From a virus, in the IMG/VR virus record IMGVR_UViG_3300025073_000027, positions 64,001-128,000 of that record: 64,000 nt of DNA. One strand, written 5' to 3'. Of this stretch, positions 18,708-59,513 are shown piece by piece. Each line of letters opens with the position of its first letter. Position 1 is the first letter of the stretch. The position numbers were made by a program, and so were the translations under genes. A model generated the notes under the pieces. The model made no database searches and was not told the DNA's origin. It worked only from the letters and a program-made list of their open reading frames with translations.

Positions 18708-19466
18708 ATGGCAAATTTAATATTTATCTTTCTATTTTTATTTAATTTAATATTACCAATAAATAATAACAATAATATAGATTATAAAAATGAATTAGAA
18801 AAATATAATATTATATTTACTGGTAATTGGTCTGAAACCAATTTATTTTATGTTTATTCGGGTATTGAATTAGTGGGAAATAAAATACTTGATTATTCTG
18901 ATATTCAAGGCAATTCTATTGATGCATTTGTATGGGCTTATAATATAACTAAAAGGAATCCATTTAAAATAGAATATTATGGTACAGGAAAAGTAGGAGG
19001 AATAGCGAGTTCTTCTAATAGAATAGGGTTTTCTGGTTTTTATAGAAATTATTATTCTTTATGTGAAGACATAGAATTAAGTTCTATAAATTTAGTAATA
19101 CATGAATTAGGACATGCTTTTGAATATTTGGTAGATGAAGAATTAGAGGTAGTTGAATTAATACCTTATATGGTATTAATAGATACAATAAAAAATACTT
19201 ATTTTCCAACTAGGGACGGTACAAATAATAATTTTGGTTTTTGCGGAATAAGGTGGGATTATCAACAAAGCCCAAGTATACATCCTAGAGAAGAATTTGC
19301 AGATATGTTTATAGGTTGGGTTTATGATTGTTGGGAGGATTCTGAAGATGGTAAATTGCGTAGTGAATTTATGGATATTCATATGTCGGTATGGTTAATA
19401 TTAGTAATAAAAGAACATTTTTATCATAAGAGTTACACATTTGGTAGTCGGTATTTTGTATATTAA
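18708..19466 (+). CDS. secreted/membrane zinc metallopeptidase-like protein
   Basis: N-terminal hydrophobic signal, HELGH, EEFAD. Confidence 0.65.
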   Translation: MANLIFIFLFLFNLILPINNNNNIDYKNELEKYNIIFTGNWSETNLFYVYSGIELVGNKILDYSDIQGNSIDAFVWAYNITKRNPFKIEYYGTGKVGGIASSSNRIGFSGFYRNYYSLCEDIELSSINLVIHELGHAFEYLVDEELEVVELIPYMVLIDTIKNTYFPTRDGTNNNFGFCGIRWDYQQSPSIHPREEFADMFIGWVYDCWEDSEDGKLRSEFMDIHMSVWLILVIKEHFYHKSYTFGSRYFVY

Positions 19467-26810: not shown

Positions 26811-28028
26811 TTAGATTATATTAACTCTAATTGGGTACAACGATATACCCTTTATCCTGTCATCATATATAAATTCAGGATTACATTTTCTTAAAATATT
26901 AAAACTTCCATTTACATCAGCATTAATCAAAGTGCCATTTTTGGATTGATATAAACCTCTTTTAATTCTTTTTCCACTAAATTTATATTTACCAAATTTA
27001 TCAGGTATAACATCATTATCAATAAAACTGGATTTACTCGTATATTGTTCAGTCATTATTTGAACTTTAATTCCATTTTCCTCTGCTTTATAAATAATCT
27101 TATTTATCAAAGATTCAAAAGGAATTTGAACAAATTTTTGATTATTCTTTTTTCCAATATTGCTTTTTCTTTGCCAATCTTTATTTCTACCAATCACTAT
27201 GTTGTCTATATTATTTTCAATACAATAGTTTATAATCCAGCGACTTACTTTATGTATATGATCTTCTGTAATATTATTTTTTTTAGTTGATATTTTTTTA
27301 ATTCTATTGGATGTACCCTTTCCTATATAACCTTCAGCTTTAGCGAACAATTTATTGTAATAATTATTTATTGATTTTATTATTTTGCCATTTATAACAA
27401 TGGGCTGTAATCCTATGTTATTAGTTAATGTAGCAAAATTATTTATTCCTAAATCAATTGCTAGATGGTTATTATTATAATTTGTTTTTTCTTCAGCTTC
27501 TTTCTCATAAACTATTTCTATTTTATAGCAAGATCCATATGGTACTATTCTGATTTGTTTTAATTCATTTTTGACTATATTGGTTTCTATAAATTTATTT
27601 CTTTTCAAAGAACCCTTTTCTTGAAAATAACATTTATTATCTATTATTTTTAATTGTTGTTTATCAAAAAATGTAACAAATCTTCCATTTTTATTTTTAT
27701 ATTTGGGCAATTTTGGCATACCGCAATATTTCGATTTATTTTTACTCCAATCTTTTATCGCTCTAAAATATGATTTCCAATCTGATCCTAATCGCATAAT
27801 GGTCATTTGAGAAGTTTTAGATGGCAAGGCTTTAAATAATTCATGATGTTTATATTGTTTATTTAAATCAAAAGCAAATAACAATTTTTTATTATTTATA
27901 AATTCCTGTCGCATTATATAGTTGATAAAATTATATAAATTCTTTGATTTATAACATAAATCATCACAATATTTAAATAATCTGTGATTTCGATCAATGA
28001 TATGAATTTGAGTTCTTAATAATTTCAT
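26811..28028 (-). CDS. tnpB: TnpB RNA-guided nuclease (IS200/IS605 family), no tnpA
   Basis: SKNLYN, PKYK, AIDLGINN, EQYTSK, INADVNGSFNI. Confidence 0.9.
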   Translation of the reverse strand: MKLLRTQIHIIDRNHRLFKYCDDLCYKSKNLYNFINYIMRQEFINNKKLLFAFDLNKQYKHHELFKALPSKTSQMTIMRLGSDWKSYFRAIKDWSKNKSKYCGMPKLPKYKNKNGRFVTFFDKQQLKIIDNKCYFQEKGSLKRNKFIETNIVKNELKQIRIVPYGSCYKIEIVYEKEAEEKTNYNNNHLAIDLGINNFATLTNNIGLQPIVINGKIIKSINNYYNKLFAKAEGYIGKGTSNRIKKISTKKNNITEDHIHKVSRWIINYCIENNIDNIVIGRNKDWQRKSNIGKKNNQKFVQIPFESLINKIIYKAEENGIKVQIMTEQYTSKSSFIDNDVIPDKFGKYKFSGKRIKRGLYQSKNGTLINADVNGSFNILRKCNPEFIYDDRIKGISLYPIRVNII

Positions 28029-28036
28029 TTTTTTTA

Positions 28037-28621
28037 TTATATATTATATTTTTTATCGGCAATATCTATTTCTACAAATTCTAATTGTTGAGGCAGATTA
28101 AAATATCGAGTTAACCAAAAACTATGATAATAAGAAGAATGACCTGTAGCACCCGATTTTCCACTTGGGGTTATGTAATCTATTCTTCTCGTTGGAACTA
28201 ATCCTTGACAATCATATTCTGAAAATAATTTTGCCATCTTTTGACACATATCAAACGGTATAAGAAAGGCAAATGGTATATCGTGTTTAATTGCTTTATC
28301 TATGAATCTGTATTTTAAAGAAAAAGGCGGGTTTGTAATAATTGCTGTCGGTTCATTAAACATTAATGTGTCTTCTAATAGAAAATTAATTGGTTGATTG
28401 CCATTTACTATTCTAATATCGGATGCAAATATATAATATCCATATTTTTGAAGTCTATTAATAATTTTTCCTTCGCCAGCAGAACATTCCCAAATTTTGT
28501 GAATATTTTTTGGAATAAATGATACTAATAAATCAACAGCATAATTAGGAGTTTGAAATAGATCTCTACCCTGCACTTCATTTATTATTTCCGGTTGATT
28601 TGTTTTAGGTTTATTACTCAT
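28037..28621 (-). CDS. phage N6-adenine methyltransferase-like protein
   Basis: FQTP, WECSAGEG, ITNPPFS. Confidence 0.75.
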   Translation of the reverse strand: MSNKPKTNQPEIINEVQGRDLFQTPNYAVDLLVSFIPKNIHKIWECSAGEGKIINRLQKYGYYIFASDIRIVNGNQPINFLLEDTLMFNEPTAIITNPPFSLKYRFIDKAIKHDIPFAFLIPFDMCQKMAKLFSEYDCQGLVPTRRIDYITPSGKSGATGHSSYYHSFWLTRYFNLPQQLEFVEIDIADKKYNI

Positions 28622-28639
28622 ATTATTTATTATCCTTTA

Positions 28640-28906
28640 TTAATTAGGTGGTGTTACTTTCACATTATATTTAAAACTATCTATAAAATCTTTTAAACAA
28701 TCTTCACAAATATCAAACTGCCATATTTCCATGTCATATTCACTACCATATTGATATTCAATTGCGAAAGATTGAATAACATCCATCCAAAAGAAATCTT
28801 GTTTATTTTTAGGCTTGAAACTTTTTCCACATTTATTGCATATGATTTCAGTAATTTCTAATTCTTTAATTATTTTTTTTATTTCTCTTGTTTTTTGTAC
28901 CACCAA
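28640..28906 (-). CDS. small Zn-binding hypothetical protein
   Basis: CNKCG, DICEDC. Confidence 0.55.
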   Translation of the reverse strand: MVVQKTREIKKIIKELEITEIICNKCGKSFKPKNKQDFFWMDVIQSFAIEYQYGSEYDMEIWQFDICEDCLKDFIDSFKYNVKVTPPN

Positions 28907-28939
28907 TTATCTCCTTATAAAATAAACTTTTTATTGGTA

Positions 28940-29197
28940 TTACATCGAACTGCCCCACATATCTACTACTTCTCCAAATTCTATCCACATTCGTTTTACA
29001 TATGAACCACAATTTTCACGTTTACCATTATCGTTTCCCCAAATAGCATAACTACAAGCTATCATACCTTCTACTTCTTCAGTAATCCATCTTTCTCCGC
29101 TATCTTGATCAAATATTAACCGATGAATTTTTACCTTTGGACCAAGGAAATTATTTTCTGTTTCTCGCTTATTAACATTAATATCTACATCACCCAT
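28940..29197 (-). CDS. hypothetical protein
   Basis: 85 aa between two palindromes. Confidence 0.5.
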   Translation of the reverse strand: MGDVDINVNKRETENNFLGPKVKIHRLIFDQDSGERWITEEVEGMIACSYAIWGNDNGKRENCGSYVKRMWIEFGEVVDMWGSSM

Positions 29198-29219
29198 AAA
29201 ATTATCCTTTTATTATTTA

Positions 29220-29432
29220 TTACATATTTTGTAAGTATCGTATTATTTTCATTATGAAATCATCTGCTTTATTTCCTAAAGATGCAAGTAATAGCAAAAA
29301 ATAAAATATAGAAAATAAACCCCAAAAATAAATTGCTTTGTTTATTGCATGAAGTTTTCGTAATTCTTCTATTATTACTTCTGGAAATATTGAGAAAATA
29401 AAAGCAAGCAACATTAAGCCTGTTTGTTTCAT
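29220..29432 (-). CDS. small membrane protein
   Basis: Two hydrophobic segments. Confidence 0.5.
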   Translation of the reverse strand: MKQTGLMLLAFIFSIFPEVIIEELRKLHAINKAIYFWGLFSIFYFLLLLASLGNKADDFIMKIIRYLQNM

Positions 29433-29532
29433 TGATAAGAATTTTTACAAGTTTTACAATACCAACTCAATCCCCATTGATAAAATTCTCGATATTTTTT
29501 ACAATGAGGACACCAGAGAATTTTTAAATTCC

Positions 29533-29733
29533 TCACCAAGGACAACCTCCTTCTGTATATAACCAAGATCGACAAAAATATATTTTTAAATGTTTATCAT
29601 AAAACATTCTATCTCCACAATGAGAACAAATACGAGTGTTAGACCAAGCTACATGTCTTTCTCGTTCTAAACCGTCATTTAATTCCCATTGGGGTAGATT
29701 TCTTTCACTTACTTTAGGTTTTTTATATTTCAT
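29533..29733 (-). CDS. small Zn-binding protein
   Basis: CSHCG..YFC..GGC; start at MKYK after AGGAG. Confidence 0.5.
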   Translation of the reverse strand: MKYKKPKVSERNLPQWELNDGLERERHVAWSNTRICSHCGDRMFYDKHLKIYFCRSWLYTEGGCPW

Positions 29734-29970
29734 TATTTTTATTCTCCTAGTAAAATTCACGTTTCATATCCAACTAGCTTCTAAATAAGTTGTTTTATTG
29801 GATTGTTTTTTATTGCATAGATGATCTTCATCTAACCAATAAAATTCACCACAAATATCACAGATATCACAATCGGGAGTTTCTAAATGTGGATATGATA
29901 TTTGAATTGATATTCCGTATGCCCATTCTGGAAATGTATTCATGTATTTATTCCTTATAAAATCCTTGTT

Positions 29971-30297
29971 TTATTTGATTGCAGGAAACTTTTTATTTTT
30001 CTTTCTAGCACCCTTTACTATTTCATCCCATTCATTCTCTAATTCTGTACGTTTTTGTACATGTTGTTGACACAAACTCCATAATTCATCTGAGTATGGA
30101 TAGCAACGGCGAAAAGGATAAAAACCGTATCTGCCATTATTTAATTCTTCTAAGTCTTTATTACCTCTAAGTTCAATACATTTACCTTCACTCGTTGTAT
30201 AAGCATCAGTATAAATAATAATTGGAAATCCTTTAATTGTTCCTGCTTCTAAGCCGGTGGGAATAAATATGTATTTGTTATTTATTATTTTATCCAT
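29971..30297 (-). CDS. hypothetical protein
   Basis: 108 aa; stop inside palindrome at 29957. Confidence 0.55.
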   Translation of the reverse strand: MDKIINNKYIFIPTGLEAGTIKGFPIIIYTDAYTTSEGKCIELRGNKDLEELNNGRYGFYPFRRCYPYSDELWSLCQQHVQKRTELENEWDEIVKGARKKNKKFPAIK

Positions 30298-30359
30298 TTG
30301 TTATTTTATTCTAATAAAAATATAGTTTTATCTGGTTTTCTTATAATAAAAACGTTATT

Positions 30360-30575
30360 TTATTGGTTCAGAGCAGGTATATTCCAGAAAGCAGGATATT
30401 CCCTTCTCATATGTCTTGTCGCTAATATTCTTTGCAAGATATGAATACTGTTTTTAAAATCATTAACATCATCGGCATTTAAATCCTCTAGCCTAATAAA
30501 AGTATTCCACGCCTGAACAATGTGATGTATAACACAATATTCCTCATAAGTTAAACCAGTTTCTTCGTGTTCCAT
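30360..30575 (-). CDS. hypothetical protein
   Basis: 71 aa; stop inside palindrome at 30346. Confidence 0.55.
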   Translation of the reverse strand: MEHEETGLTYEEYCVIHHIVQAWNTFIRLEDLNADDVNDFKNSIHILQRILATRHMRREYPAFWNIPALNQ

Positions 30576-30600
30576 TTTTATTCCTTATAAAAGCATTATT

Positions 30601-30759
30601 TTATTGTTTATAAAATGGTAATCGTGAATCCGCTCCACGTTTTACTTTATCCTTAGAAAGTCCTAAAGATTTTGCTACTTTTTCTATATTTTGAAGATGA
30701 CTACATATACGATAATTTTTATCTTCTATTGTAATTGTATAAAAGTATATATTGTTCAT
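30601..30759 (-). CDS. tiny ORF below track threshold (52 aa)
   Basis: MNNIYFYTITIEDKNY..PFYKQ; stop inside palindrome at 30587. Confidence 0.45.
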   Translation of the reverse strand: MNNIYFYTITIEDKNYRICSHLQNIEKVAKSLGLSKDKVKRGADSRLPFYKQ

Positions 30760-30808
30760 TTTGTTTTTTTATAACCAAAACTTATTTATTTTTTTATATT
30801 TATAATAT

Positions 30809-31066
30809 TTACATTTTTTTTACTGGCTTATCGGGTATAAAATTAATCTTATGTGAAAGCCATTGTTTTAAACTATATTCAATATCGAGGTAATAAAATA
30901 TTTCATTCATATATTCTTTTATCCAACTATAGATTTCTCGTAAACCAAAATTTAATAAGCTGAATTTTCTCGCTTTACAAATATACCAATCCCAATATGA
31001 TATATGTTCACAATGAAGGCATAGGTGATTTTTGTATATTTCTTGCATTTGTTTATTTTTATCCAT
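30809..31066 (-). CDS. hypothetical protein
   Basis: 85 aa, CLHC. Confidence 0.5.
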   Translation of the reverse strand: MDKNKQMQEIYKNHLCLHCEHISYWDWYICKARKFSLLNFGLREIYSWIKEYMNEIFYYLDIEYSLKQWLSHKINFIPDKPVKKM

Positions 31067-31098
31067 TATCCATTTGTTTTCCTTATAAAATATCGGTT

Positions 31099-31266
31099 TT
31101 ATTGTTTATTATTTTCTACCCAATATAAAAATTGATCCAATTCGGATTTAGCATATCCATGCCTTGATTGTATATCTTGATAATCATCATATTTATCTAA
31201 GGTTTCAAGATATTCTGTTACCCATTCATTATATAATTCTAAAAATATTCTTGTTTCAATATTCAT
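31099..31266 (-). CDS. tiny ORF below track threshold (55 aa)
   Basis: MNIETRIFLELYNEW..ENNKQ; RBS next to palindrome 31281, stop in palindrome 31085. Confidence 0.5.
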   Translation of the reverse strand: MNIETRIFLELYNEWVTEYLETLDKYDDYQDIQSRHGYAKSELDQFLYWVENNKQ

Positions 31267-31294
31267 TTACTTATTTCCTTATAAAATTGTGGTT

Positions 31295-31498
31295 TTATTC
31301 TGAAATATATTTATTTGTATCCATAAATTTAATATCAATAGCACTCGATAAAATATTTATAAGTTTTCCTGTTTTAACATCTTCTAAACAATAGCAATGA
31401 TAATTATCAATCATATATGAATACCAAAATAATCCCATCTTCCATTCAATACCTATTTGATATTTACATAATCTATATTGAGGTTCTAATTTAATCAT
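31295..31498 (-). CDS. hypothetical protein
   Basis: 67 aa bracketed by palindromes. Confidence 0.5.
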   Translation of the reverse strand: MIKLEPQYRLCKYQIGIEWKMGLFWYSYMIDNYHCYCLEDVKTGKLINILSSAIDIKFMDTNKYISE

Positions 31499-31530
31499 TT
31501 GTTTTTCCTAATAAAATCTAATTTTTATCA

Positions 31531-31764
31531 TTATAAATTTTTAAGTTCCCATTCTAAATCTTCTATTTTATTTTTTAATTCTTCTATGTCATCATCATAT
31601 CTTTTTTCAAGAACATCCAATTCATCTGCATATTCATAACATAAATTTCTTAATCGATCATTGACTTTTCTAATTACTTTCAGTTCCTTTTCAATTTCAT
31701 CAATGCTAGGGCAAGAGTGTTCAATGTTATCAATTTTTCTAGTTCGTTCACTATAAATAGTCAT
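31531..31764 (-). CDS. small coiled-coil protein
   Basis: CPSID then heptad-rich helix. Confidence 0.55.
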   Translation of the reverse strand: MTIYSERTRKIDNIEHSCPSIDEIEKELKVIRKVNDRLRNLCYEYADELDVLEKRYDDDIEELKNKIEDLEWELKNL

Positions 31765-31768
31765 AATA

Positions 31769-32314
31769 TTAATTATTATTGTCCTTTTTTTCTGTCATTA
31801 TCATTCTTATTTCTTCTAAACTAACTGGATAATAATTATTATTATCTATTCCAACATCATATGCTAAAGATCCATTTGGGTAAATATAATTACCGTGAGA
31901 GTGAGCATGTAAATGCCATGACCCATAATGTTTTCTATCCCATTCCGCAAGAGGATAATGACATAAAACAATTGGTACTTCAAATTCTTCTAATACAATC
32001 ATTGGTGGCAATAATTTAACGGGATGATTTTTAGAATAATATTCTTCTTTATAAGATAGCCAGCGCTTATCGTGATGCCAAGGATTAGATAAAACAGAAA
32101 TTATTCCATTTAATTGTATAAAATATTTTTTGGCAAGAGCAACATTCCCTAAAGTAAAATCACTCAAATGATAAACTATGTCATTTTTAGAAACCTTTTC
32201 ATTCCATTTATTTATTAATTCTTGATCCATTTCTTCTACGGATTGAAAAGGTCTTTTTGTATATTTGATTACATTAGTATGGCCGAAATGTTGATCTGAA
32301 GTAAAAAATATCAT
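31769..32314 (-). CDS. calcineurin-like metallophosphoesterase
   Basis: SDQHFGH, LSDF, HYP, HAHSH, DVGID. Confidence 0.85.
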   Translation of the reverse strand: MIFFTSDQHFGHTNVIKYTKRPFQSVEEMDQELINKWNEKVSKNDIVYHLSDFTLGNVALAKKYFIQLNGIISVLSNPWHHDKRWLSYKEEYYSKNHPVKLLPPMIVLEEFEVPIVLCHYPLAEWDRKHYGSWHLHAHSHGNYIYPNGSLAYDVGIDNNNYYPVSLEEIRMIMTEKKDNNN

Positions 32315-32318
32315 AAAA

Positions 32319-32525
32319 CTATCCTCTTATTTGGTTTTCATTATATTTAACAACTGCTTGACTATAAATAATCATATCGTTTATACCAGGAGAAAAAAGA
32401 AATGCATATGATGGGCCATATAATTTCCATTTCTTTTTTAAATAACTATTTACATTATTATTAAACGTAGATAAATCACAAGATTCAATCATACAATATT
32501 CTTCAATATTTTCTATATTATACAT
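32319..32525 (-). CDS. DUF1737-like small protein
   Basis: VN.YL..KWKLYGP..YSQAVVK. Confidence 0.5.
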   Translation of the reverse strand: MYNIENIEEYCMIESCDLSTFNNNVNSYLKKKWKLYGPSYAFLFSPGINDMIIYSQAVVKYNENQIRG

Positions 32526-32546
32526 ATTATTATACCCTTATTTTGT

Positions 32547-32600
32547 TTTCATTATATTTATGGGTTTCATCGTTTGTTGAAACTCATAGATATAATGAAA
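32547..32600. repeat. 54-bp imperfect inverted repeat
   Basis: 23-bp arms (21/23 complementary) around an 8-bp loop. Confidence 0.75.
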
Positions 32601-32610
32601 TTATTTGTTT

Positions 32611-32805
32611 TTATGGCAACATTGCTCGAACAAAACAATCCTTTGCCTCAAGTAACTTCCTCATTCCTGCTGATTTTTCTGGTCCATCAGGAAGGATGTT
32701 TTCCATATAAAATGCTAATTCGGCTACTTTTTTAGATACATCACGTAATTCACCAGAAAGATGTTCATATATAAAATATTTAATTGTTGTACTTGGCATT
32801 TTCAT
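32611..32805 (-). CDS. conserved small helical phage protein
   Basis: YF.YEHL..VSK..LPDGPEKSAGMRKLLEAKDCFVRA. Confidence 0.6.
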   Translation of the reverse strand: MKMPSTTIKYFIYEHLSGELRDVSKKVAELAFYMENILPDGPEKSAGMRKLLEAKDCFVRAMLP

Positions 32806-32811
32806 TCTCCT

Positions 32812-33102
32812 TTATTCTTCTATAAAAAATTGCATAGATTCTAGTTCTTCTAACCATTTATCCATACAATTCAAGCAAGAATAAGTGCTACCCCATTCTC
32901 CTTCAACAATTGCATGTTCTCTCATTGCCAATTCACCAGTAAGTATTTCATGATATGAATTTTCACCAACCAGTTCTGCTAAACAGCAATTATGAGGTTT
33001 TCTGGTTTTTACTATTTTCCAAGTATATACCTTTATATTTGTATCTCTATCTGTACCTAAAAACGGATTCCAATTTTGATATGTTTCTTTTTTGTATTTC
33101 AT
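32812..33102 (-). CDS. small Zn-binding protein
   Basis: KTRKPHNCC..CLNC. Confidence 0.55.
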   Translation of the reverse strand: MKYKKETYQNWNPFLGTDRDTNIKVYTWKIVKTRKPHNCCLAELVGENSYHEILTGELAMREHAIVEGEWGSTYSCLNCMDKWLEELESMQFFIEE

Positions 33103-33154
33103 TATTAATCTTTTTTCCTTTTTTGATATTTTTTTTATTAATCCTATTCCTTAT

Positions 33155-33427
33155 TCATTCTACACTTGATTTATTAAATATGTGCTCACCGCCCCTAGTA
33201 GAACTATACCAATATAAAATCCATAAAAGACAATTATCTTTTATAGCGGCTATAATTTCTTCGTTGCCAGACCATCCACCTGTAATTAAGTGCCAATCTT
33301 TTCCGATCTTTGATATATATTCGGGCCAATGCCATAGATTAGATACATAGTTCATCAGTCCATCAAAGTCATCAGCGTCCCACTCTCGTATCTTTTGCAA
33401 TTCGTTATCTTCTGGATAGTCACTCAT
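33155..33427 (-). CDS. conserved hypothetical phage protein
   Basis: TGGWSGNEEII..RGG. Confidence 0.6.
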   Translation of the reverse strand: MSDYPEDNELQKIREWDADDFDGLMNYVSNLWHWPEYISKIGKDWHLITGGWSGNEEIIAAIKDNCLLWILYWYSSTRGGEHIFNKSSVE

Positions 33428-33457
33428 GTTATATTTTTTCCTATGAAATTTACTTTT

Positions 33458-33808
33458 TTATTGTAAAATTTTATTCATAATATATTTATATGTTTCAATG
33501 GCCTTATCTGATCCTCTAAATTCAAATGAATATTTTCCAGCTGAAGTCATAATAACAATTGTACTTGTTTTTATAAATGTTCCGGAATCTAATGCGGATA
33601 CGGCAACGATTTTAGAATATGGTACAGATGCCATATTTTTGTTTTTTACCCATCCAGTCATTTCTTGATCATAAAATATAAGTCTTTTATTTGTTATACC
33701 AACAAATCCAGTTCCGACACCTTTACAATCATATACCGATATTAATTCTTCTCCGCTAAGAATATATGGTGCTATTTTTTCATATTGTTCTTTTTTATCG
33801 TAATACAT
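33458..33808 (-). CDS. bacterial PH-domain protein
   Basis: GEE..ITNKRLIFYD..SVPYSKI..VS. Confidence 0.7.
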   Translation of the reverse strand: MYYDKKEQYEKIAPYILSGEELISVYDCKGVGTGFVGITNKRLIFYDQEMTGWVKNKNMASVPYSKIVAVSALDSGTFIKTSTIVIMTSAGKYSFEFRGSDKAIETYKYIMNKILQ

Positions 33809-33841
33809 TTTAAATATCTTTCTCCTAATAAAACTTAATTT

Positions 33842-34027
33842 TTATTCTAAATATTCCCAATACTCTTTACCTAGTGATATTTCACTATCCGATAATTCTG
33901 GTAATCCCAATGTCTTTCTAATCCTATTAATTATTAAATAGCCATCATAAACATAACACCAAGCATGATCAAACCCTTCCATAACAAACTCTTTAATATC
34001 ATTAATTGTCTCTCGATTAATATCCAT
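33842..34027 (-). CDS. hypothetical protein
   Basis: 61 aa bracketed by palindromes. Confidence 0.5.
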   Translation of the reverse strand: MDINRETINDIKEFVMEGFDHAWCYVYDGYLIINRIRKTLGLPELSDSEISLGKEYWEYLE

Positions 34028-34050
34028 ATTTCTCCTATAAAATTGAAGTT

Positions 34051-34263
34051 TTATTGTTCTTCATCATCTTTATAAAATTCTTCAACATCGTGATAACCTG
34101 AATATGGGTTAAGCACATAACCAAGAGCATTTACCTTGTCTTTATGAACAGGTGCATCGTAACCACAAAAGTAAAAATTGTTGTCTATATAACGTGCTAT
34201 TTCTATATCATCATCTGCATATCTTACCCAATAATACATTCCGTCATATAAGTTTATGTCCAT
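34051..34263 (-). CDS. hypothetical protein
   Basis: 70 aa, GMYYWVR. Confidence 0.5.
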   Translation of the reverse strand: MDINLYDGMYYWVRYADDDIEIARYIDNNFYFCGYDAPVHKDKVNALGYVLNPYSGYHDVEEFYKDDEEQ

Positions 34264-34473
34264 TTATATCTCATCTTTCTTTCGCAATCTTTCAACTGAA
34301 AAATAACTTGGATAATCTAACGTAAATAAAATTTTATAAATATCTGGAAAATTATCAAATACTTTAATTGCGTGTTGAATTAAAGCATCATTTACAGTTT
34401 CGTTATCTTTTATATATGTTTCTTCTTTACCTGTAAATGGATCGTCATAAATGCATTTGTATTTATATTCCAT
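34264..34473 (-). CDS. hypothetical protein
   Basis: 69 aa, AAGGAG RBS abutting palindrome 34486. Confidence 0.5.
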   Translation of the reverse strand: MEYKYKCIYDDPFTGKEETYIKDNETVNDALIQHAIKVFDNFPDIYKILFTLDYPSYFSVERLRKKDEI

Positions 34474-34499
34474 ATTTTTCTCCTTATAAAAGAATTATT

Positions 34500-36743
34500 T
34501 TATAATAATTTAAGCCACGTATTTCTACTTGTATTTTTATCAGTTTCAATTGCTTTATTGAAGGCCCAAGGTTCAGCAAGAATAAGACATCGCTTTATTG
34601 CTCTGGTAACAGTTGTGTAAAGATAACATCGATCTAAAAGCATAAAATGTGTATTATCAATTAAAGATATTATTGTATGACACTGGCTTCCTTGGAATTT
34701 GTGTGTTGTTAAAGCATAAGCTAAATCTATATCTTTTAATTCTGTTTTAGTGTATTGAATATATTGATCATCGTATTTCACCACTAAAACCTTTTCTCCA
34801 TCTGGATTTATACCTAAACTATCTACATATCCTAAAGTTCCATTCATTACACCTTTTTCGTAATCGTTTCTAATATGTATTACCTTAGAACCAATTTTAT
34901 ATTTTATTTCACCATATTCCATATAAGGAACATCATCTGATAATAATATATCTTGTATTTGTCTATTTATTTTTTTAGTGCTATTAATACAATCCTTTTT
35001 TCTAGGTGTAAGAATAATTACTTCATCTAAACTTAGACTTTCCTCAGTAATTGAACGTAAAAATGTTTTTACCGCTATTTCATTCAAAGCATCGCGTGAA
35101 TCTCTAAACATATAATAAAGATCTTCTAATTCGCCATGAACAATTTTAAAACTCTTTTGTGGAACAGGATTTTTACCAACTCTTATTTTGTTAGCATCTG
35201 AAATAATTCCTGATTTTTCAGCTTGCCGATGTATCTTAGTTAATTTATTTAATTGTAATCCTTCTTTATCCAATAAATCAGAAAAAATATTGGCATAGCC
35301 GATAGGAGGTAATTGGAAGTTATCGCCTACTAAAATAACTTTTGTTCCAGTTTGAATTGCCTTGAATAAATTAAGAAATAAATAACCATTTAACATTGAA
35401 CATTCATCAATTAAAATAACATCATAAGGCAATTTTAAATATTCATCAAATTTAAAGTTATTTAATCCATCTGCCCCCAAGAGTCTATGCAGCGTTGAAC
35501 TAGGATATCCGGTAACTTCTTCTAATCTTTTAGAAGCTTTAGCGGCAAGTGTAGCGCAAGCAATAGGGTGATTACTATAAATATTTAGGATACCTCGTGA
35601 TATAGACGATTTGCCAGTACCGGCAGGACCACAAAGAAGATTGAAATTGTTTTTAGTGATATTTATTAATGCTTCCCTTTGTTCTTCAGAGAAAATAAAT
35701 CCCTGATCTTCTTCAGCTTTCTTTATACCTTCATTAATTTCTTCTTGTGTAATTTCAAGAAGCTCACTTTCACTAAATTCTTTAACGTATCTCCATATTT
35801 CTCGTTCAACCCAATAATAATAGTCTAATCCTACTTTCCAATTATCATCTTCATCTTTTTCAAAATGTAAAAAAGTGGTAAACCCTTTTTCTTTTTCAAT
35901 TACGGATTGATAAATTTCTTCACACTCAATTAGGTTTTCTTTTACAGCAATTGTAAGATCATCTAAATACAGCCAAGTATGTCCAGAACCATCACCTAAT
36001 TCTCGTAGATAATTTTTTATAAATGAAATGACTCTTTTATCAGAATGTTTCATTTCTGGATTAAGTTTTATTGCTATATTATCTGCTTGTTTGAAACTTA
36101 TTCCAGGTATATCTATAATAATATATGGATCATTTAATAACTTTTGTTTCAATAATTCGGCATTAGGTTCAAAATTTAAAAGTTTGTGTATTTTTGAAAA
36201 CGAAATCCCAAGGGGAGATAGTAATGTAAGAACATCAGCAATAGCATAATTACTAATAATCTTTTCCCTAATCAACTTCCAAGTATGATCTTTAATGCCC
36301 TTAGTATTATTTAAATCAATATCACCTTCGTTACCACTAATAACTTTCTCAATAATGTCTGGATATGCTTCTAATAGAACTTGTGCCTGATTAGGAGTAA
36401 CAATACTTTCTAAAAACTTTTGTTGTTGATCTACAGTCTTAGGAAGTTCTTGACTACTCTTAAGAATCTCGTAACCCCAACCATACTTTGAGTGATTTGT
36501 TAGTTTAGCTTTGAAACGATAAGGCATACCGATTGTAAGTTGTTGAGTTTTACCGGATAAATTAATTTGATAATAAGAATCAATTTTATCGGTTATAAAA
36601 TCAGTATTGAAAATTTGTTTCGCCTGAGGAATTTCTTTATCAAGAGAAACCAAATAAGAACCCCAACTGGAATCGGGACTATAGAATTTCTCAAATGTGG
36701 GTGTTCCATCAAATTCAACAATTTGACCTTCGGAAAAATCCAT
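34500..36743 (-). CDS. recD2: RecD2-like SF1 helicase
   Basis: GPAGTGKS, IDECSM, GD..QLPPIG, IHRQ, YALTTHKFQGS, YTTVTRA. Confidence 0.9.
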   Translation of the reverse strand: MDFSEGQIVEFDGTPTFEKFYSPDSSWGSYLVSLDKEIPQAKQIFNTDFITDKIDSYYQINLSGKTQQLTIGMPYRFKAKLTNHSKYGWGYEILKSSQELPKTVDQQQKFLESIVTPNQAQVLLEAYPDIIEKVISGNEGDIDLNNTKGIKDHTWKLIREKIISNYAIADVLTLLSPLGISFSKIHKLLNFEPNAELLKQKLLNDPYIIIDIPGISFKQADNIAIKLNPEMKHSDKRVISFIKNYLRELGDGSGHTWLYLDDLTIAVKENLIECEEIYQSVIEKEKGFTTFLHFEKDEDDNWKVGLDYYYWVEREIWRYVKEFSESELLEITQEEINEGIKKAEEDQGFIFSEEQREALINITKNNFNLLCGPAGTGKSSISRGILNIYSNHPIACATLAAKASKRLEEVTGYPSSTLHRLLGADGLNNFKFDEYLKLPYDVILIDECSMLNGYLFLNLFKAIQTGTKVILVGDNFQLPPIGYANIFSDLLDKEGLQLNKLTKIHRQAEKSGIISDANKIRVGKNPVPQKSFKIVHGELEDLYYMFRDSRDALNEIAVKTFLRSITEESLSLDEVIILTPRKKDCINSTKKINRQIQDILLSDDVPYMEYGEIKYKIGSKVIHIRNDYEKGVMNGTLGYVDSLGINPDGEKVLVVKYDDQYIQYTKTELKDIDLAYALTTHKFQGSQCHTIISLIDNTHFMLLDRCYLYTTVTRAIKRCLILAEPWAFNKAIETDKNTSRNTWLKLL

Positions 36744-36797
36744 TTATTATTTATTATCCTTGTTATTATTTTATAATTTATTATTTATAGATGTTAT

Positions 36798-36826
36798 ATA
36801 TTATCACAGAATTACAAATTTGTCAA
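36798..36826 (-). promoter_or_regulatory. sigma70-type promoter upstream of recD2
   Basis: TTGACA-17-TAATAT with TG extension. Confidence 0.65.
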
Positions 36827-39432
36827 GACTTGGATAAAAATTCATGTTCCTTTTCTGTAATAAAATAAGTTTCCATCCACCAATCTATCTTATCAGGAAC
36901 TTGTTCCCACTCACCATTCTCATTCTTACGCATAGAATTTTTCTTTTTGAATGATTTACAGAGAAGAATATCACCTTCAGTAAAAGGATGAGAATCAAAT
37001 ATTTTTTTAGATACTTTTACAACTTGGCAAGTGCCAGTCGATAAAGGATATAATTCTATTTTAGGAGTATATTTAGTATCAATTTTCTTTACAACAGCAT
37101 ATCTTTTATCTACATCAAACTTAGTTCGAATATTGCCAGCAACTTCTATCTCGTTATTTATTTGCTCAAAAATAGTAAAACTTTTTTCATCCTGAAAATC
37201 ATACGATAAACGTAATTCTTCTAATCGTTTTACTTTAGATTTATCGGTTAATGTTTTCTTGTATCTATTCTTCCCATTAGTAAATTCTTCAAAAAACCAA
37301 AGTTGTTTTTTATTGCTACCAAATTTATCAAAATAATTTATTTTTATCAAGTCTTTAAATTTACTAGAAATCAGAGAATTTTCTTCACAATATACAAGCA
37401 AGTCTAAGAAATCATTTCCAGTAAAATTTTTATTTATGTATGCTAAATTATCAATTAATTTACTAGGTATACTTTTAATACCTTTTAGAATAGAAACAAC
37501 ACCTTCAATTTCTGTTTCTCGTAACGCTTCTGGATCTACATAATCTTCTGGCTCATCTTCAAAACTAAATGGTTCAATATCTTGATTATTTTCAATGTCT
37601 GTAATGTATTTTTGGGCTTCTTCTTCATAAAAGGCATAATCAATATTATATTTTTCTATAGGTATGGAAGCATCATAATCATTTAATATTGTAGTTAGTT
37701 TGCCAACATATAAACCAATTTCTGTTCCATTAGACATTCTGCGTTTGATTAGTTTACCACCGTTGTTTGACACGAAAAATCTATTGTTTTTTTGAAGTTG
37801 AATAATATTATCATCTTTATGAAACTCTAAAATAAAATCTCCACCTGTCTTTTGAGATATACAGAAATCCAAAATATTGTCAGATTTCTTCAAAGTGTCA
37901 ATAACGGAAATCTTATTTACAAAATAATCATACAACGCTTTAGGAACAATGGGATGACGAAATGCCCGTTTTAATTCAACAGTTTTTAAGTAACGTCCTT
38001 TTTCCTTAGTTTTACCATCTGGTTTAACCGTTATGTAGTTATTAACATCGCTTCTATAATATGCCAGATATTCAGTATCTTCAAGAACAAAACCTGTTTT
38101 CTTTTGCCACCATTCAGAAATTTCTTGACATTTATTTTCTAATTCTACTGGCAAATGTAATACTATACCGTCTGTATTTGTAGAAATAACTTCAATTCCT
38201 TCTACTACCAAGGCTTCTATTAACATTAATAAATATAACTGTCCACTTACCGTTACAGATAATAATTGTTTTGGATCATAAAGCCAAAAAACATCACTGC
38301 CCAATTTTCCAAAAATGCTATTAATTGTGATCTTAAGACTATCGGCTTTAATTTTATCTCCGCTTTTCTTGGCTTTCAATCGTTCTTTAGTAATACGCTT
38401 AAGAATATTAACAAATTTAGGATCGAGATGTTCAGAATAAAGATTATTGTTGATCATAATAGATGGGTAGTATGACGCTACATCTTTATCCATTATTTTT
38501 ATCTTATCCGTAGATATAAAATATCCTGGTTTATCAACACTATGCAAACCACCTACTCCTAATTCATAAGTAACATTTGCAAACTTTACTGTCTTACTAT
38601 ATTTAAAATTATCTTCTTTGTGAACAACCTTTTCTTCAATTTCTCTTTTTATTCGTTTTAGACGATTAGTTTTAAATTCAATGTTCTTACCTAAACAATC
38701 ACCAACACGAATACTATCTCTTTCTGTTCGCAAGTTACGCAATTCTTTAGAAGTTATTCCTGTTGCTTTGCAGTATATATGCTCTAAAATAACATCTGCC
38801 ATCTTGGAATCACTTGCACTCATTAAATCAACTTCATATTCTTCACTTAGTTTTTCACGTAATTCAAGTTGAGAAGATAAGGATTGAAGTAATTTTTGAG
38901 TAATAAGAACATCGTTCAAGTTATAACTTAAAACCTTTTCGTATTCTTCTAGTTGAACATGGTGATCATAAGGTAAAGGTAAATCTTGTACTTTGTGCCA
39001 GAGAAGATTGATACTAATTTGTTTGAGGGACACGCCTAACTTATCAAAGGCCATGAGTTTCATCAAGTCAATTTGTTTGTACTTTACATTATTCGGTCTT
39101 TGATGATTACGTGTTTTTGTATCAAATGCCATACGATTAGAATTAATAAGAGAGTTGGAAAAATTATATATTTCAGGATTTATTTCTTTTGGTTTTACAT
39201 TTATATTTTGTTGATAATATTCAGTAATAAAATGTAAAATAGCACCATCAAAGAGAATGTTGTTAAAACCAATAAGTATCATTTCATGGTCTAAGAAATG
39301 ATAGAGAGATTTAATATCGTTTCGCCCTGGCGCTATTACAAATACGTGTTGCTCTGATTCATTATCAGAATTTAAAAATGTACTTGAAAAAAAATTGGGA
39401 AATATTTCTACATCGTATGTATATCTGACCAT
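36823..39432 (-). CDS. family B-type DNA polymerase with 3'-5' exonuclease and C-terminal extension
   Basis: YDVE, GFNNILFD, YNLNDV; DVASYYPS, KITINSIFGK, NTDG. Confidence 0.85.
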   Translation of the reverse strand: MVRYTYDVEIFPNFFSSTFLNSDNESEQHVFVIAPGRNDIKSLYHFLDHEMILIGFNNILFDGAILHFITEYYQQNINVKPKEINPEIYNFSNSLINSNRMAFDTKTRNHQRPNNVKYKQIDLMKLMAFDKLGVSLKQISINLLWHKVQDLPLPYDHHVQLEEYEKVLSYNLNDVLITQKLLQSLSSQLELREKLSEEYEVDLMSASDSKMADVILEHIYCKATGITSKELRNLRTERDSIRVGDCLGKNIEFKTNRLKRIKREIEEKVVHKEDNFKYSKTVKFANVTYELGVGGLHSVDKPGYFISTDKIKIMDKDVASYYPSIMINNNLYSEHLDPKFVNILKRITKERLKAKKSGDKIKADSLKITINSIFGKLGSDVFWLYDPKQLLSVTVSGQLYLLMLIEALVVEGIEVISTNTDGIVLHLPVELENKCQEISEWWQKKTGFVLEDTEYLAYYRSDVNNYITVKPDGKTKEKGRYLKTVELKRAFRHPIVPKALYDYFVNKISVIDTLKKSDNILDFCISQKTGGDFILEFHKDDNIIQLQKNNRFFVSNNGGKLIKRRMSNGTEIGLYVGKLTTILNDYDASIPIEKYNIDYAFYEEEAQKYITDIENNQDIEPFSFEDEPEDYVDPEALRETEIEGVVSILKGIKSIPSKLIDNLAYINKNFTGNDFLDLLVYCEENSLISSKFKDLIKINYFDKFGSNKKQLWFFEEFTNGKNRYKKTLTDKSKVKRLEELRLSYDFQDEKSFTIFEQINNEIEVAGNIRTKFDVDKRYAVVKKIDTKYTPKIELYPLSTGTCQVVKVSKKIFDSHPFTEGDILLCKSFKKKNSMRKNENGEWEQVPDKIDWWMETYFITEKEHEFLSKS

Positions 39433-41152: not shown

Positions 41153-42100
41153 TTATAATCCTTTATTATTTATATTTATATATGCCTTTTTTAACCATTC
41201 TATAAATAAATTTTGAGGCATATTATTTTTTGATTTATTACATATTTTACAGCACGAAACTACATTATTTTCAATATATCCCTTATTTGAATCAATTCTG
41301 TCTATCCCATTATAATTAAAAATTTCACCTGTTTTATTAATCAATATATTACTTGCTATTTCTCCACAATAATAACAATTTCCGCGTACTAATTCGGTAA
41401 AATATTCCCTTGACAAATTAAATTCTATATTTTTATTTTTAGCCCTTTGTTTATAGTTTTTAATAATTCTATTTATAAGTACATAATCTCTATCTTTATT
41501 AATTTTATTAATATTTAATTTATCAAAAGAAAGACATCCGCAAGATTGAGTATTACCACTACGTAAACTACCATGTTGTACAATAATTTTATTTCCGCAA
41601 TCACATATACATTCCCAATAAGTTTTTTTCTTATTTTCGTATTTAATTTGTCGAAGAACTAATAGACGATTAAATTTTATGCCAGTTAAATCTACAAAAC
41701 AAGCTTCTCTCAATTTTTCGATTCTAAGGCAACCACACGATTGAGTTGTTCCATTTTTTAAATTACTACCTATAACAACCGCGTTTTTTCCACAATCACA
41801 TAAACAATTCCAATAACTATGTTTTCTATTCATATACGCAAAAGATAAAACCAATAATCTTCCAAATTTCTGTCCATTTAATTTTAAAACACTATTTCCC
41901 TTATTTCCTTCTTTTAATAAACAACCGCAAGATTTTACTCTACCCGATTTTAAATCACTTGTTTTTAAAATTTTTTCATTTCCACAATCACATACACATA
42001 ACCAAAATGCACCGGATTTTTGATTTTTCGGTTTCTCAACTCGTTTTACAACAGTTAATTTATTAAATTTTTGTCCAATTAAATCTTTAGTTTTATTCAA
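41153..42100 (-). CDS. HNH-family homing endonuclease
   Basis: Three CxCDCG repeats, GIDRIDSNKGY..NVVSCC..CN; paralog of 1732-2469. Confidence 0.85.
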   Translation of the reverse strand: MNKTKDLIGQKFNKLTVVKRVEKPKNQKSGAFWLCVCDCGNEKILKTSDLKSGRVKSCGCLLKEGNKGNSVLKLNGQKFGRLLVLSFAYMNRKHSYWNCLCDCGKNAVVIGSNLKNGTTQSCGCLRIEKLREACFVDLTGIKFNRLLVLRQIKYENKKKTYWECICDCGNKIIVQHGSLRSGNTQSCGCLSFDKLNINKINKDRDYVLINRIIKNYKQRAKNKNIEFNLSREYFTELVRGNCYYCGEIASNILINKTGEIFNYNGIDRIDSNKGYIENNVVSCCKICNKSKNNMPQNLFIEWLKKAYININNKGL

Positions 42101-42124: not shown

Positions 42125-42227
42125 ATAAAATAGTCCTTTTATTGGTTTTTTACCCCCTATATATAGGGATCAATTGTTTATATCTCCCATATATGGGGTG
42201 TGATTTACGATAAAACTTTCTTTTTAT
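42125..42227. promoter_or_regulatory. palindrome / NrdR-like box / NrdR-like box / palindrome
   Basis: Cores 42125-42142 and 42210-42227; boxes CCCCTATATATAGGGA (42154) and CTCCCATATATGGGGT (42184). Confidence 0.6.
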
Positions 42228-42967
42228 TATATTTTTTCTAGTCGTTCTTCCGCTATTTCACAATAATATTTGTTATTATCAATTCCTATATAATTTCGAT
42301 TTAATTTTTTTGCACAATAAGCAGTAGTACCAGATCCCAAAAAACAATCCAACACTATATCATTTTTAGTTGTATGAGCGAGAATTATTCGTTCAATTGC
42401 TTTTTCTGGTTTTGGAGTAAAATGATTTTTATCTTTCTTAATAATATCTTTTATTCCTGTAAGACCAGATAAAGTTTCCTCTTTTATATCAGTCCACACA
42501 TTTGTTAGTCTTTTATATTCTTTTTTTAATCTCTTAATCCAGGCATCATCATATTTTTCTGTAGAATATTGACATTCTGTATTCCAAATAAACTTTTTAT
42601 TATCTTTTACAAACCACAAAACTTCTTCTCTGGTGTAAAGCCACCCCTTTCTCATTCCCATTCCACGTTGTTTTTTCCATGTAATCCAATCTTTAAAATA
42701 CCATCCAGTATTTTTGAATATCAAAAACCAATTAATTATAGTTTGAGATTTTTCACCAATACCGCCCCAACAATAAAAATTTCCAGTTGATTTCAATACC
42801 CGAAATAATTCTTTGGATAATTGAGGGGAAACAACATCTTTTTTGTCCCATTGTTCTTTTGTAACTATGTATGGAGGATCAATAATTATTAAATCTACAG
42901 AATTATCTTCTATTAAATTTAATCCTTGAACACAGTCCATATTATATATTTTATTTATTTCAAGCAT
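42227..42967 (-). CDS. DNA methyltransferase, beta class
   Basis: DPPY before HFTPKPE and DCFLGSGTT. Confidence 0.88.
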   Translation of the reverse strand: MLEINKIYNMDCVQGLNLIEDNSVDLIIIDPPYIVTKEQWDKKDVVSPQLSKELFRVLKSTGNFYCWGGIGEKSQTIINWFLIFKNTGWYFKDWITWKKQRGMGMRKGWLYTREEVLWFVKDNKKFIWNTECQYSTEKYDDAWIKRLKKEYKRLTNVWTDIKEETLSGLTGIKDIIKKDKNHFTPKPEKAIERIILAHTTKNDIVLDCFLGSGTTAYCAKKLNRNYIGIDNNKYYCEIAEERLEKI

Positions 42968-43008: not shown

Positions 43009-43026
43009 ATAAAAACTATTTTTTAT
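43009..43026. repeat. junction palindrome
   Basis: ATAAAA ACTATT TTTTAT. Confidence 0.7.
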
Positions 43027-59507: not shown

Positions 59508-59513
59508 CTTATA

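Follow-up and report, generated by a model that had tools for sequence, protein, structure and literature searches.

Repeated short palindromes at the junctions of small minus-strand genes in a phage genome raise the question of what such elements are for. The stretch analyzed here (the window) is 64,000 nucleotides long and comprises bases 64001-128000 of the 137,722-bp virus record IMGVR_UViG_3300025073_000027; the genome is 29% G+C and, judged from its protein matches, belongs to a large, SPbeta-like phage. A sequence-only reading had noted 12 exact copies of the palindrome ATAAAA-N6-TTTTAT between 28.9 and 34.5 kb of the window, and had proposed an integron-like mechanism for adding, deleting or shuffling accessory genes. 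We found that the palindrome is a real DNA-level element at gene junctions and one case of an element that is widespread and, it seems, undescribed. We hypothesized that the sites are duplex DNA hinges, that is, exchange joints for gene modules between related phages, and we regard this as evenly balanced between true and false.

All starts and spacers read for the 12 sites were correct, and every site lay at a gene junction on the minus-strand map of open reading frames (ORFs). On a crude greedy gene map, which chose a plus-strand ORF there, the site at 31281 was scored inside an ORF. The cassette genes of this region are on the minus strand, and the unit consists of an ORF, a TAA within the first arm, the N6 spacer, the second arm, (A/T)AGGA, and an ATG 7-10 nt on. 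A stop codon was located inside the first arm at 8 of the 12 sites, at the coordinates first reported, the minus-strand ORFs ending at the site start plus 14. The statement that the second arm runs directly into the ribosome-binding site (RBS) held for 9 sites, in which (A/T)AGGA follows the arm directly; the remaining 3 deviate. The array and its sites are listed below; no strand is assigned to the palindromes.

28940-34473, minus strand: array of ~24 small ORFs (31-181 amino acids) punctuated by sites
28917-28934: palindrome, spacer TAAACT (plus strand), then AAGGAG on the coding (minus) strand
29196-29213: palindrome, spacer TTATCC; the coding-strand spacer GGATAA resembles an RBS, and the ATG of ORF 28940-29197 overlaps the palindrome arm
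29957-29974: palindrome, spacer TCCTTG; gives the TAA of ORF 29971-30297
30314-30331: palindrome, spacer ATATAG; first of a doublet, 14 bp to the next site
30346-30363: palindrome, spacer ACGTTA; gives the TAA of ORF 30360-30575
30587-30604: palindrome, spacer GCATTA; gives the TAA of ORF 30601-30759
31085-31102: palindrome, spacer TATCGG; gives the TAA of ORF 31099-31266
31281-31298: palindrome, spacer TTGTGG; gives the TAA of ORF 31295-31498
31511-31528: palindrome, spacer TCTAAT
32313-32330: one-mismatch variant ATAAGA-N6-TTTTAT (coding strand), at the junction of 31769-32314 and 32319-32525
33828-33845: palindrome, spacer CTTAAT; gives the TAA of ORF 33842-34027
34037-34054: palindrome, spacer TTGAAG; gives the TAA of ORF 34051-34263
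34486-34503: palindrome, spacer GAATTA; gives the TAA of a RecD-like helicase gene

About half of the ~24 junctions in 28.9-34.5 kb had no exact site; for example, there was none between 31531 and 33808. Across the genome, 36 sites were located between the end of one ORF and the start of a co-directional one. The stop codon occupied arm positions 2-4 in 17 of these 36 and overlapped the first A in 6 more.

The number of exact copies in the window was 21, compared with 0.33 expected and a maximum of 2 in 100 dinucleotide shuffles, and the whole genome carried 53. The N6 spacing was exclusive; the two hexamers placed at other spacings of 0-14 gave 0-4 copies in the whole genome, and no rival 6-N6-6 palindrome in the genome exceeded 3 copies. 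We counted 46 copies in the intergenic set (234 intervals, 20,431 bp, 76% A+T), whereas 0.20 were expected from a Markov-1 model and 0.21 from per-interval shuffles (maximum 3 in 500 trials each). The motif is therefore far more frequent than in AT-matched intergenic shuffles, and so survives the refutation that the sequence-only reading had set for it. It had also been stated that every spacer differs. There were indeed no duplicates among the 53 copies; however, this is within chance, as 1.58 identical pairs were expected (P(0) = 0.19). Upon self-comparison of the genome, no duplicated cassette with sites at its bounds was detected.

The distribution of the palindrome was then assessed in other genomes. 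Nine IMG/VR records (G001-G009) had been picked for already having a match and therefore show conservation, not prevalence. The palindrome was the top 6-N6-6 palindrome in 8 of 8 genomes: this phage (53 copies), SPbeta (13), G001 (18), G002 (19), G003 (16), Kirov (21), E3 (17), and vB_BcoS-136 (14). The reversed pattern, used as a control, occurred once in SPbeta and was absent from G001, G002, and G003. Copies were also found in c-st (13; control 1), G004 (11), G005 (21), G006 (41; control 1), G007 (8; control 2), G008 (16), and G009 (7), with controls of 0-2 throughout. None of the spacers was repeated within any of the 8 genomes (171 sites), where ~2.7 identical pairs were expected; this difference is weak (P ~0.07). 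In a scan of IMG/VR for the motif together with AAGGAG, more than 108 stretches matched, at least 24 of them with two or more copies. The proteins shared among motif genomes are only 20-37% identical, while the motif is shared, suggesting that the arms are kept by a sequence-specific reader. In bacterial genome contigs, 109 of the matches listed for the motif with AAGGAG (at least 120 stretches) were single-copy and 11 had two or more copies; since 109 of the matches listed were single-copy, clustering of sites appears to be a phage trait. These comparisons suggest that the motif is a shared trait of a large Bacillota siphovirus group, in which many uncultured phages stand beside SPbeta-, Kirov/Tsamsa-, E3-, and c-st-like ones. 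The palindrome was undescribed in the searched full-text literature, SPbeta reviews, and genome papers, although the 1999 SPbeta genome paper or the 2023 repressor-operon paper may mention it.

Close relatives of this phage were sought in three ways. Megablast of positions 28000-36800 against 50,697 phage records gave no match. A pattern search for relatives of the helicase protein gave 3 matches in viral contigs and 87 in metagenome contigs, none of which was confirmed. Nor did the motif matches listed from bacterial genomes yield a close relative. The window was near-complete in 15 groundwater or soil metagenome runs from 6 studies, none of them RNA and nine of them flagged as possible sources, and two further groundwater samples with 8-16% of the window's words may contain relatives. 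Contigs of 4 of these 15 runs contained pieces identical to the window; none of 15 joints, which were called at 80% likeness and are often spurious, was site-to-site. The joint sides were 20-38 letters long, except for one of 69 letters in the polymerase region 37434-37672. One contig joint ended at 31299, directly past a site, and its other end was not at a site.

If modules are exchanged at the sites, homology between relatives would be expected to break there. Breakpoints of gene gain and loss did coincide with sites in the SPbeta family and, more weakly, in the Kirov/Thrax family. In the SPbeta family, we compared SPbeta 80-103 kb with the matching stretches of Goe13, phi3T, SPbetaL4, and SPR. 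Among 256 ends of homology blocks (high-scoring segment pairs), 65 were located within 15 bp of a site centre, compared with 1.4% of random positions. Identity was lost at or within a site in 32 distinct junction alignments; in most of them it ended where one of the two arms has its outer edge, and in a few at the boundary between arm 1 and spacer. A breakpoint was present in 33 of 39 motif junctions and in 49 of 172 motif-free junctions (odds ratio 13.8); the corresponding p = 1e-10 assumes an independence that the five related genomes lack. For the second family, Kirov 140-160 kb was compared with Thrax3 and Thrax1, whose DNA is ~84-87% identical.

Spacers were conserved between relatives in both families. 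Eleven spacers recurred in at least two of the five SPbeta-family genomes, in the same order, and most shared boundaries carried identical spacers. Around the 11 recurrent spacers, both flanks varied in 6 cases and neither in 1; variation was confined to the upstream side in 3 and to the downstream side in 1, indicating that the site belongs to neither neighbouring gene. In a 20-kb stretch of Kirov, 9 of 11 sites matched sites of Thrax3 and Thrax1 exactly in the spacer, and their order was kept. Five site pairs passed an ungapped flank-synteny filter, and in these pairs 0 of 30 spacer positions and 73 of 500 flank positions had changed (p = 0.009). We also measured homology over 60 nt on each side of a site, using the 99th percentile of random 60-mers as the threshold. 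Of the 99 identical-spacer pairs from both families, 26 showed no homology on either side, 49 on one side, and 24 on both sides; the first two classes comprised 9 of 30 pairs and 15 pairs in the Kirov family, and 17 of 69 pairs and 34 pairs in the SPbeta family. Chance spacer identity would give an estimated ~2 of the 99 pairs. An ordered, identical 18-bp island amid replaced surroundings is difficult to square with a passive by-product. The sequence-only reading had pointed to Tn916-type integrases, which tolerate non-identical 6-bp coupling sequences; spacer conservation between relatives fits exchange between matching sites better, notwithstanding one indel between unlike spacers. In a single case, the syntenic sites phi3T 15986-16003 and SPbeta 99497 carry reverse-complement spacers (TTATCA and TGATAA), as if flipped.

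We propose that the hinge is an 18-20-bp dyad with invariant arms, (A)ATAAAA and TTTTAT(T), and a position-specific 6-bp centre, and that its arms would be read by a conserved dimeric sequence-specific DNA-binding protein. The hinge occupies the minimal gap in which one gene's stop codon (in many cases the TAA that arm 1 contains) is followed by the Shine-Dalgarno (SD) sequence of the next; therefore, exchange inside it would leave both neighbouring genes intact. Co-infecting relatives, or a phage and a prophage, would exchange gene modules at hinges, such that a hinge and its centre keep their place and order when new DNA arrives on one side or on both. Hinges with matching centres would be recombined by a phage tyrosine recombinase, YomM-like or Xer-like, in the manner of heterospecific lox/FRT exchange. 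Unlike centres within one genome would prevent self-deletion, and relatives could thereby swap accessory genes slot for slot without scrambling their own genomes. We advance the catalysis of spacer-matched exchange by a tyrosine recombinase only tentatively. The same reserve applies to the widest form of the proposal, in which the arms would be read by the late-expressed YomM-like recombinase and the 6-bp overlaps would serve as addresses in a natural cassette exchange across the supergroup.

Two tyrosine recombinase genes are present in the window.

4904-5953, plus strand: tyrosine recombinase of the tail module, YomM-like (homologous to the YomM integrase of SPbeta)
61510-62409, minus strand: XerC/XerD-like tyrosine recombinase (Pfam E = 6e-36)

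When 61510-62409 was aligned to XerD, the residues R, K, HxxR, H, and Y (six residues) were all kept; in 4904-5953, R, HxxR, W, and Y were aligned, and K was uncertain. All but one of the 13 motif genomes tested (12 of 13) gave a match to a YomM-like or Xer-like recombinase, the exception being G005, which is a 71%-complete fragment. A site is located 5 bp from the 3' end of the recombinase gene in this phage and 14 bp from it in G003. In G008, a site lies ~25 bp past the matched part of the recombinase gene, the end of the match being possibly not the end of the gene. We rejected site-recombinase adjacency as a rule, as the distance elsewhere was 200 bp to 5 kb. The role first suggested for the two enzymes is thus upheld as to their catalytic residues, whereas the YomM-like gene also occurs in a phage that has no site. 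The link between recombinase and sites is circumstantial.

Several observations weigh against module exchange at hinges, or against its catalysis by a recombinase. The phage without sites is Brevibacillus phage Sundance, in which we detected 0 sites and no other enriched palindrome; it shares structural and replication modules with the motif genomes, and the YomM-like gene is syntenic in it. The sites recognized by tyrosine recombinases in solved complexes have arms of ~11-13 bp, whereas the conserved palindrome arms are only 6-7 bp. Of the 82 breakpoint-bearing junctions in the SPbeta family, 49 had no motif. In the Kirov family, a breakpoint was present in 17 of 30 motif junctions and 59 of 159 others, giving an odds ratio of 2.2 (p = 0.066). 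All breakpoint evidence comes from other phage families, as no close relative of this phage was found. BLAST alignments run through the shared arms, so that a crossover cannot be placed inside a site, and an 18-bp island of identity in general homologous recombination would give the same alignments. One indel between SPbeta and phi3T joins the unlike spacers TTGAAG and AGACTG, which strict matching forbids. On the coding strand, arm 2 departs from the consensus two to three times as often as arm 1 does, hinting at a directional function. Laboratory hybrids of phi3Ts and SPbeta (n = 3) contain seven parent-switch intervals, several of them common to hybrids. Six of the seven are in 1.4-18-kb stretches identical in both parents, and at least 5 of the 12 ends of these stretches sit at a hinge. 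The sole resolvable interval (40 bp) holds no site, and ordinary homologous recombination clearly suffices in the hybrid setting.

We next examined whether the element is read as DNA or RNA. Among 119 pooled oriented sites, there were no further fixed positions and no elements of the -35/-10 type. A weak symmetric extension was observed: an A tended to precede arm 1 and a T to follow arm 2, and the spacer tended to begin and end with T/A; the seventh arm position was weak (A 55%, T 40%). One-mismatch sites pooled from the 8 genomes numbered 218 at N6, compared with 54-70 at N4, N5, N7, and N8. Their variants were mirrored: T>C at position 10 (TTTCAT) occurred 45 times and A>G at position 3 (ATGAAA) 24 times; T>A at position 12 (TTTTAA) occurred 31 times and its mirror (TTAAAA) 11 times. 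Such mirrored degeneracy is characteristic of duplex sites with dyad symmetry that a dimer recognizes. The TTTTAA form predominates in the early plus-strand region of SPbeta.

The main alternative is that the palindrome is an operator for a conserved dimeric regulator of the phage or its host, acting as a roadblock or silencer like the mycobacteriophage stoperators, an insulator, or a per-gene switch before accessory genes; we consider this possible but doubtful. Protein operators had been among the alternatives named in the sequence-only reading, and they are still a live rival. The strict dyad, the fixed spacing, and the mirrored degeneracy are as expected of an operator. The sites are located 0-50 nt upstream of start codons, and this position before the RBS suits a regulator equally well, which is a further point against exchange joints. 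The tandem pairs 30314/30346 and 60128/60147 resemble cooperative operators, and the latter precedes a 12-gene operon. Under this explanation, the coincidence with breakpoints would be secondary, since shared islands attract homologous or microhomology recombination, which is followed by selection for intact genes; the sole resolvable laboratory crossover needed no site. We hold such a secondary origin to be possible as well, though again doubtful. However, the centre is conserved between relatives even when both flanks have been replaced, and a site can hold the RBS and abut the ATG (29196, 2913) or sit between convergent or terminal genes. In addition, we searched for a reader protein using blastp of all ORFs of at least 45 amino acids against 8 genomes and found no obvious regulator common to the motif genomes, although a single motif-free genome gives this search little power; the shared proteins were confined to recombinases, nucleases, and proteins of replication and structure. 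Four families occurred in 4 or more motif genomes and not in Sundance: a 343-amino-acid structural-region protein, an HNH nuclease, a tail protein, and the DNA polymerase.

The known SPbeta repressor bears on the operator explanation in both directions. According to PMC10516654, the master repressor (MrpR/YopR/SroF), a protein with a recombinase fold, recognizes a repeated element called SPBRE. The phi3T repressor box is described in bioRxiv 10.1101/2025.11.27.690993 as 26 bp long, non-palindromic, with two direct A-tracts, and bound by a monomer. The palindrome resembles SPBRE in being a repeated, A-tract-rich intergenic element, ATAAAA occurs within the box, and the SPBRE reader has a recombinase fold. 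We rejected the palindrome as an SPBRE/MrpR box, as its arms are inverted around N6, unlike the direct A-tract box printed for phi3T. That box is described at ~10 promoters, whereas the palindrome occurs at other and more places. The core of the direct-repeat box occurs 6 times in SPbeta at coordinates that differ from those of the palindromes. Thus, the known repressor, as far as these sources describe it, binds a different non-palindromic box as a monomer, which counts against the operator explanation. On the other side, SPbeta palindromes are present directly upstream of repressor-box-like sequences (113663 and 132746). Furthermore, 5 or 6 of the 10 MrpR peaks published in PMC10516654 are named after genes that have an exact or one-mismatch site no more than a few hundred bp away, a comparison by gene names only. 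Sequences resembling the repressor-box core are located 3-8 bp downstream of a palindrome and upstream of an SD at SPbeta 113663-113710 and 132746-132790 and in SPbetaL4 near 14880. Their position beside palindromes suggests possible composite junction elements in the SPbeta family.

Other regulatory signals were also considered. Sigma-70 promoter-like matches in 28-37 kb were at shuffle level (64 vs 66.4), and terminator-like matches in the same region numbered 4, compared with 2.3 in shuffles, with none at a site. A TAGAAT-like hexamer often follows SPbeta sites; however, we rejected a promoter as a general explanation, as in this phage the SD directly follows the arm and the pooled flanks are not fixed. 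YonO has been reported with one late promoter, upstream of yonK (PMC5467207). In SPbeta 59.1-60.8 kb, the region of the YonO start, we found no site with up to 2 mismatches. The 1.7-kb gene-free stretch between yonK and yonN (SPbeta 59153-60833) is richer in G+C and resembles a large structured non-coding RNA. YonO-like genes are present in this genome and in SPbeta, G001, and G003, whereas Sundance lacks both YonO and the sites. The link to YonO was dropped, as there was no YonO match in motif-bearing Kirov, E3, vB_BcoS-136, c-st, and G004, an empty answer of this kind being weak. ComK-type AAAA-N5-TTTT, the CodY box, MerR-type spacer operators, and repetitive extragenic palindromic (REP) elements were dropped on grounds of spacing, orientation, or anatomy.

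An intercistronic AU hairpin in mRNA processing, stability, or translational coupling is improbable. The sites do lie inside polycistronic arrays, with the stop codon overlapping arm 1 in 23 of 36 cases and the SD directly after arm 2 in 9 of 12; the minimum-energy fold of 30 nt pairs the arms at 44 of the 53 sites, and the degeneracy of arm 2 is a strand-specific constraint. However, the hairpin is essentially unstable: the RNA 18-mers folded at a mean of -0.35 kcal/mol, and the 30-mers at -2.1, compared with -0.85 for shuffles. The commonest variant, TTTCAT (45), gives an A.C mismatch in the hairpin, while its G.U-compatible mirror is rarer (24), and no compensatory changes between the arms were seen among the pooled one-mismatch sites. 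The palindrome also occurs at convergent and terminal positions and in both orientations of the flanking genes, and a hairpin gives no reason for conservation of the loop together with replacement of the flanks. The RNA processing signal, also named in the sequence-only reading, is therefore disfavoured by its weak fold energy and by the pairing-breaking commonest variant.

Very improbable is a target for a nuclease or nickase, such as a YoqL-like HNH enzyme, or a replication or packaging signal, at which breaks stimulate recombination. Such breaks would also concentrate exchanges at the sites, and yoqL-homologous HNH genes occur twice in the window and also in SPbeta, G001, G002, and G003. 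However, with the window protein as the query, the HNH family was not detected in motif-bearing Kirov, E3, and vB_BcoS-136, and this explanation gives no reason for a conserved, site-specific centre. Finally, in a genome of 29% G+C the hexamers ATAAAA and TTTTAT are frequent (405 and 517 occurrences). An origin by chance from this base composition, or as a side effect of the A+T-rich surroundings of stop codons and RBSs, nevertheless has next to no probability and is refuted by the shuffle and spacing counts, the reversed-pattern controls of 0-2, and the 16 copies in G003 at 49.5% G+C.

Comparison with known recombination systems separated the parts of the cassette-exchange idea. The location of sites at junctions and the breakpoints in two families speak for it, whereas the integron-type mechanism fails. 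Integron attC sites are long (57-141 bp) imperfect palindromes with R''-L''/L'-R' boxes and extrahelical bases that are recombined as a folded single strand, and cassettes enter a single attI next to intI and the Pc promoter. The array resembles an integron in its promoterless, small, co-oriented genes, each bounded by palindromes, and in the presence of a tyrosine recombinase in the same genome. However, the palindromes are 18-bp duplex dyads with perfect arms, dispersed in the genome, and conservation extends only one base into their flanks. A helicase gene stands at the head of the array, and the recombinase genes are 23 kb and 27 kb away. The best structure-sequence matches of the recombinase were Xer proteins, IntI4 reaching only 3.9e-12. 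The array thus lacks attC-type sites and an attI/Pc arrangement, and the recombinases fit Xer and phage-integrase models better than a dedicated IntI.

Xer sites have arms of ~11 bp, and a given replicon or module type keeps a single conserved central region; genes of Acinetobacter plasmids are flanked by pdif sites, and XerH, XerS, and XerA are single-recombinase Xer systems. The palindrome is similar to dif and pdif in its inverted arms around a 6-bp centre, and the window encodes an Xer-like recombinase with the full catalytic set; it differs in its 6-7-bp arms and in having 13-53 sites per genome, each with its own centre. In engineered Cre/Flp systems with heterospecific lox/FRT sites (13-bp arms, 8-bp spacer), only matching spacers recombine. 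By analogy, this is the nearest mechanistic logic: the arms are the same, the spacers within a genome are unlike, and relatives with different cargo have the same ordered spacers. The difference is that lox/FRT exchange is engineered, whereas here the recombinase and the spacer dependence are what we infer, and in one indel the spacers joined are unlike. The stoperators found in mycobacteriophages of cluster A are 13 bp, asymmetric, and orientation-dependent, and are bound by a monomeric immunity repressor. Like the palindrome, stoperators and the cluster K start-associated sequences are tens of short motifs in short intergenic gaps near start or stop codons; unlike it, they are asymmetric and 13 bp, and we know of no link between them and mosaic breakpoints or site-specific centres.

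The closest functional analogue described so far is the promoter-early stem-loops (PeSLs) of T4-type phages. In PMC2839356 and PMC4122927, PeSLs are intergenic elements among small non-essential genes, proposed for modular shuffling; they bound insertions, deletions, and replacements between close relatives, and mini-circles have been shown physically. Both elements are short conserved intergenic motifs among small genes of a large phage, with indel or replacement boundaries at the motif. As described there, PeSLs consist of a sigma-70 promoter and a terminator stem-loop, whereas the palindrome has no promoter consensus or stable stem. PeSLs recombine by homology over the whole repeat, whereas palindromes share only 12 of 18 bp, and the palindrome centre is site-specific and conserved between relatives.

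The origin of phage mosaics with breakpoints at gene boundaries is an old question, in which "linker" sequences have been set against illegitimate recombination followed by selection. Here, in two phage families with good sampling, many of the exchange points coincide with one precisely defined 18-bp element, and it spans Bacillus and Geobacillus phages, a Clostridium phage, and uncultured groundwater phages. SPbeta and phi3T carry sites and are genetically tractable in Bacillus subtilis; therefore, the idea is directly testable. If recombinases act on the sites, phages would possess a natural system for multiplexed cassette exchange, and the engineering of large phages would gain a handle. 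As operators, the sites would instead be an unrecognized regulon-wide control element in a model phage.

Further copies of the palindrome, outside the 12, are present in the window.

2913-2930: copy with spacer GGAAGA; an ATG two bases past the arm
5950-5967: copy overlapping the stop codon of the YomM-like recombinase gene
19407-19424: copy inside a predicted ORF on the crude gene map
42125-42142: copy upstream of the HNH-like gene 41153-42100
42210-42227: copy at the stop of ORF 42227-42967
43009-43026: copy
49794-49811: copy
60128-60164: abutting pair (60128-60145 and 60147-60164) upstream of the first gene of a glycan operon (59514-60113, minus strand)

The doublets 30314-30363 (14 bp apart) and 60128-60164 (1 bp apart) look like "slots" with nothing inside. 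The pair at 60128-60164 precedes the 12-gene glycan operon, and G002 has a comparable pair (7962/7987). Between the sites 42125 and 42210, at 42143-42200, are two palindromes with G+C clamps, one CCCTATATATAGGG-like and the other CCCATATATGGG-like; they could be terminators or another repeat. The C-run/TATATA sequence after site 5950 resembles these G+C-clamped palindromes.

The array is headed by a helicase gene.

34500-36743, minus strand: RecD/Dda-like helicase gene
26811-28028, minus strand: 405-amino-acid protein of the IS605 OrfB/TnpB type (Pfam OrfB_IS605, 1e-18, and a Cas12f1-like TNB domain)
1651-2469, plus strand, and 41153-42100, minus strand: paralogous HNH-type endonuclease genes related to SPbeta yoqL, with homologues in G001, G002, and G003

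The helicase is ~28-33% identical to those of the large Bacillota siphoviruses Sundance, c-st, E3, and Kirov, and a sigma-70-like hexamer pair is located at 36826-36798, by the helicase gene. Using blastp against SPbeta, we matched a YonO-type RNA polymerase (26% identity, E = 5e-28), the YonF terminase (36%), the YorK RecJ-like nuclease (37%), the replicative helicase, and YorJ. Eight array ORFs were searched against Pfam, and a match was obtained for 33458-33808 alone (bacterial PH/GRAM domain). Homologues in other genomes were limited to 2 of the small accessory ORFs (4 matches), and these were not consistently flanked by sites. The OrfB/TnpB gene lies beyond the low-coordinate end of the array, with ORFs 28037-28621 and 28640-28906 between it and the first palindrome. 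A 126-bp exact direct repeat at the genome ends (1-126 and 137592-137717) could represent terminal redundancy or a circular assembly.

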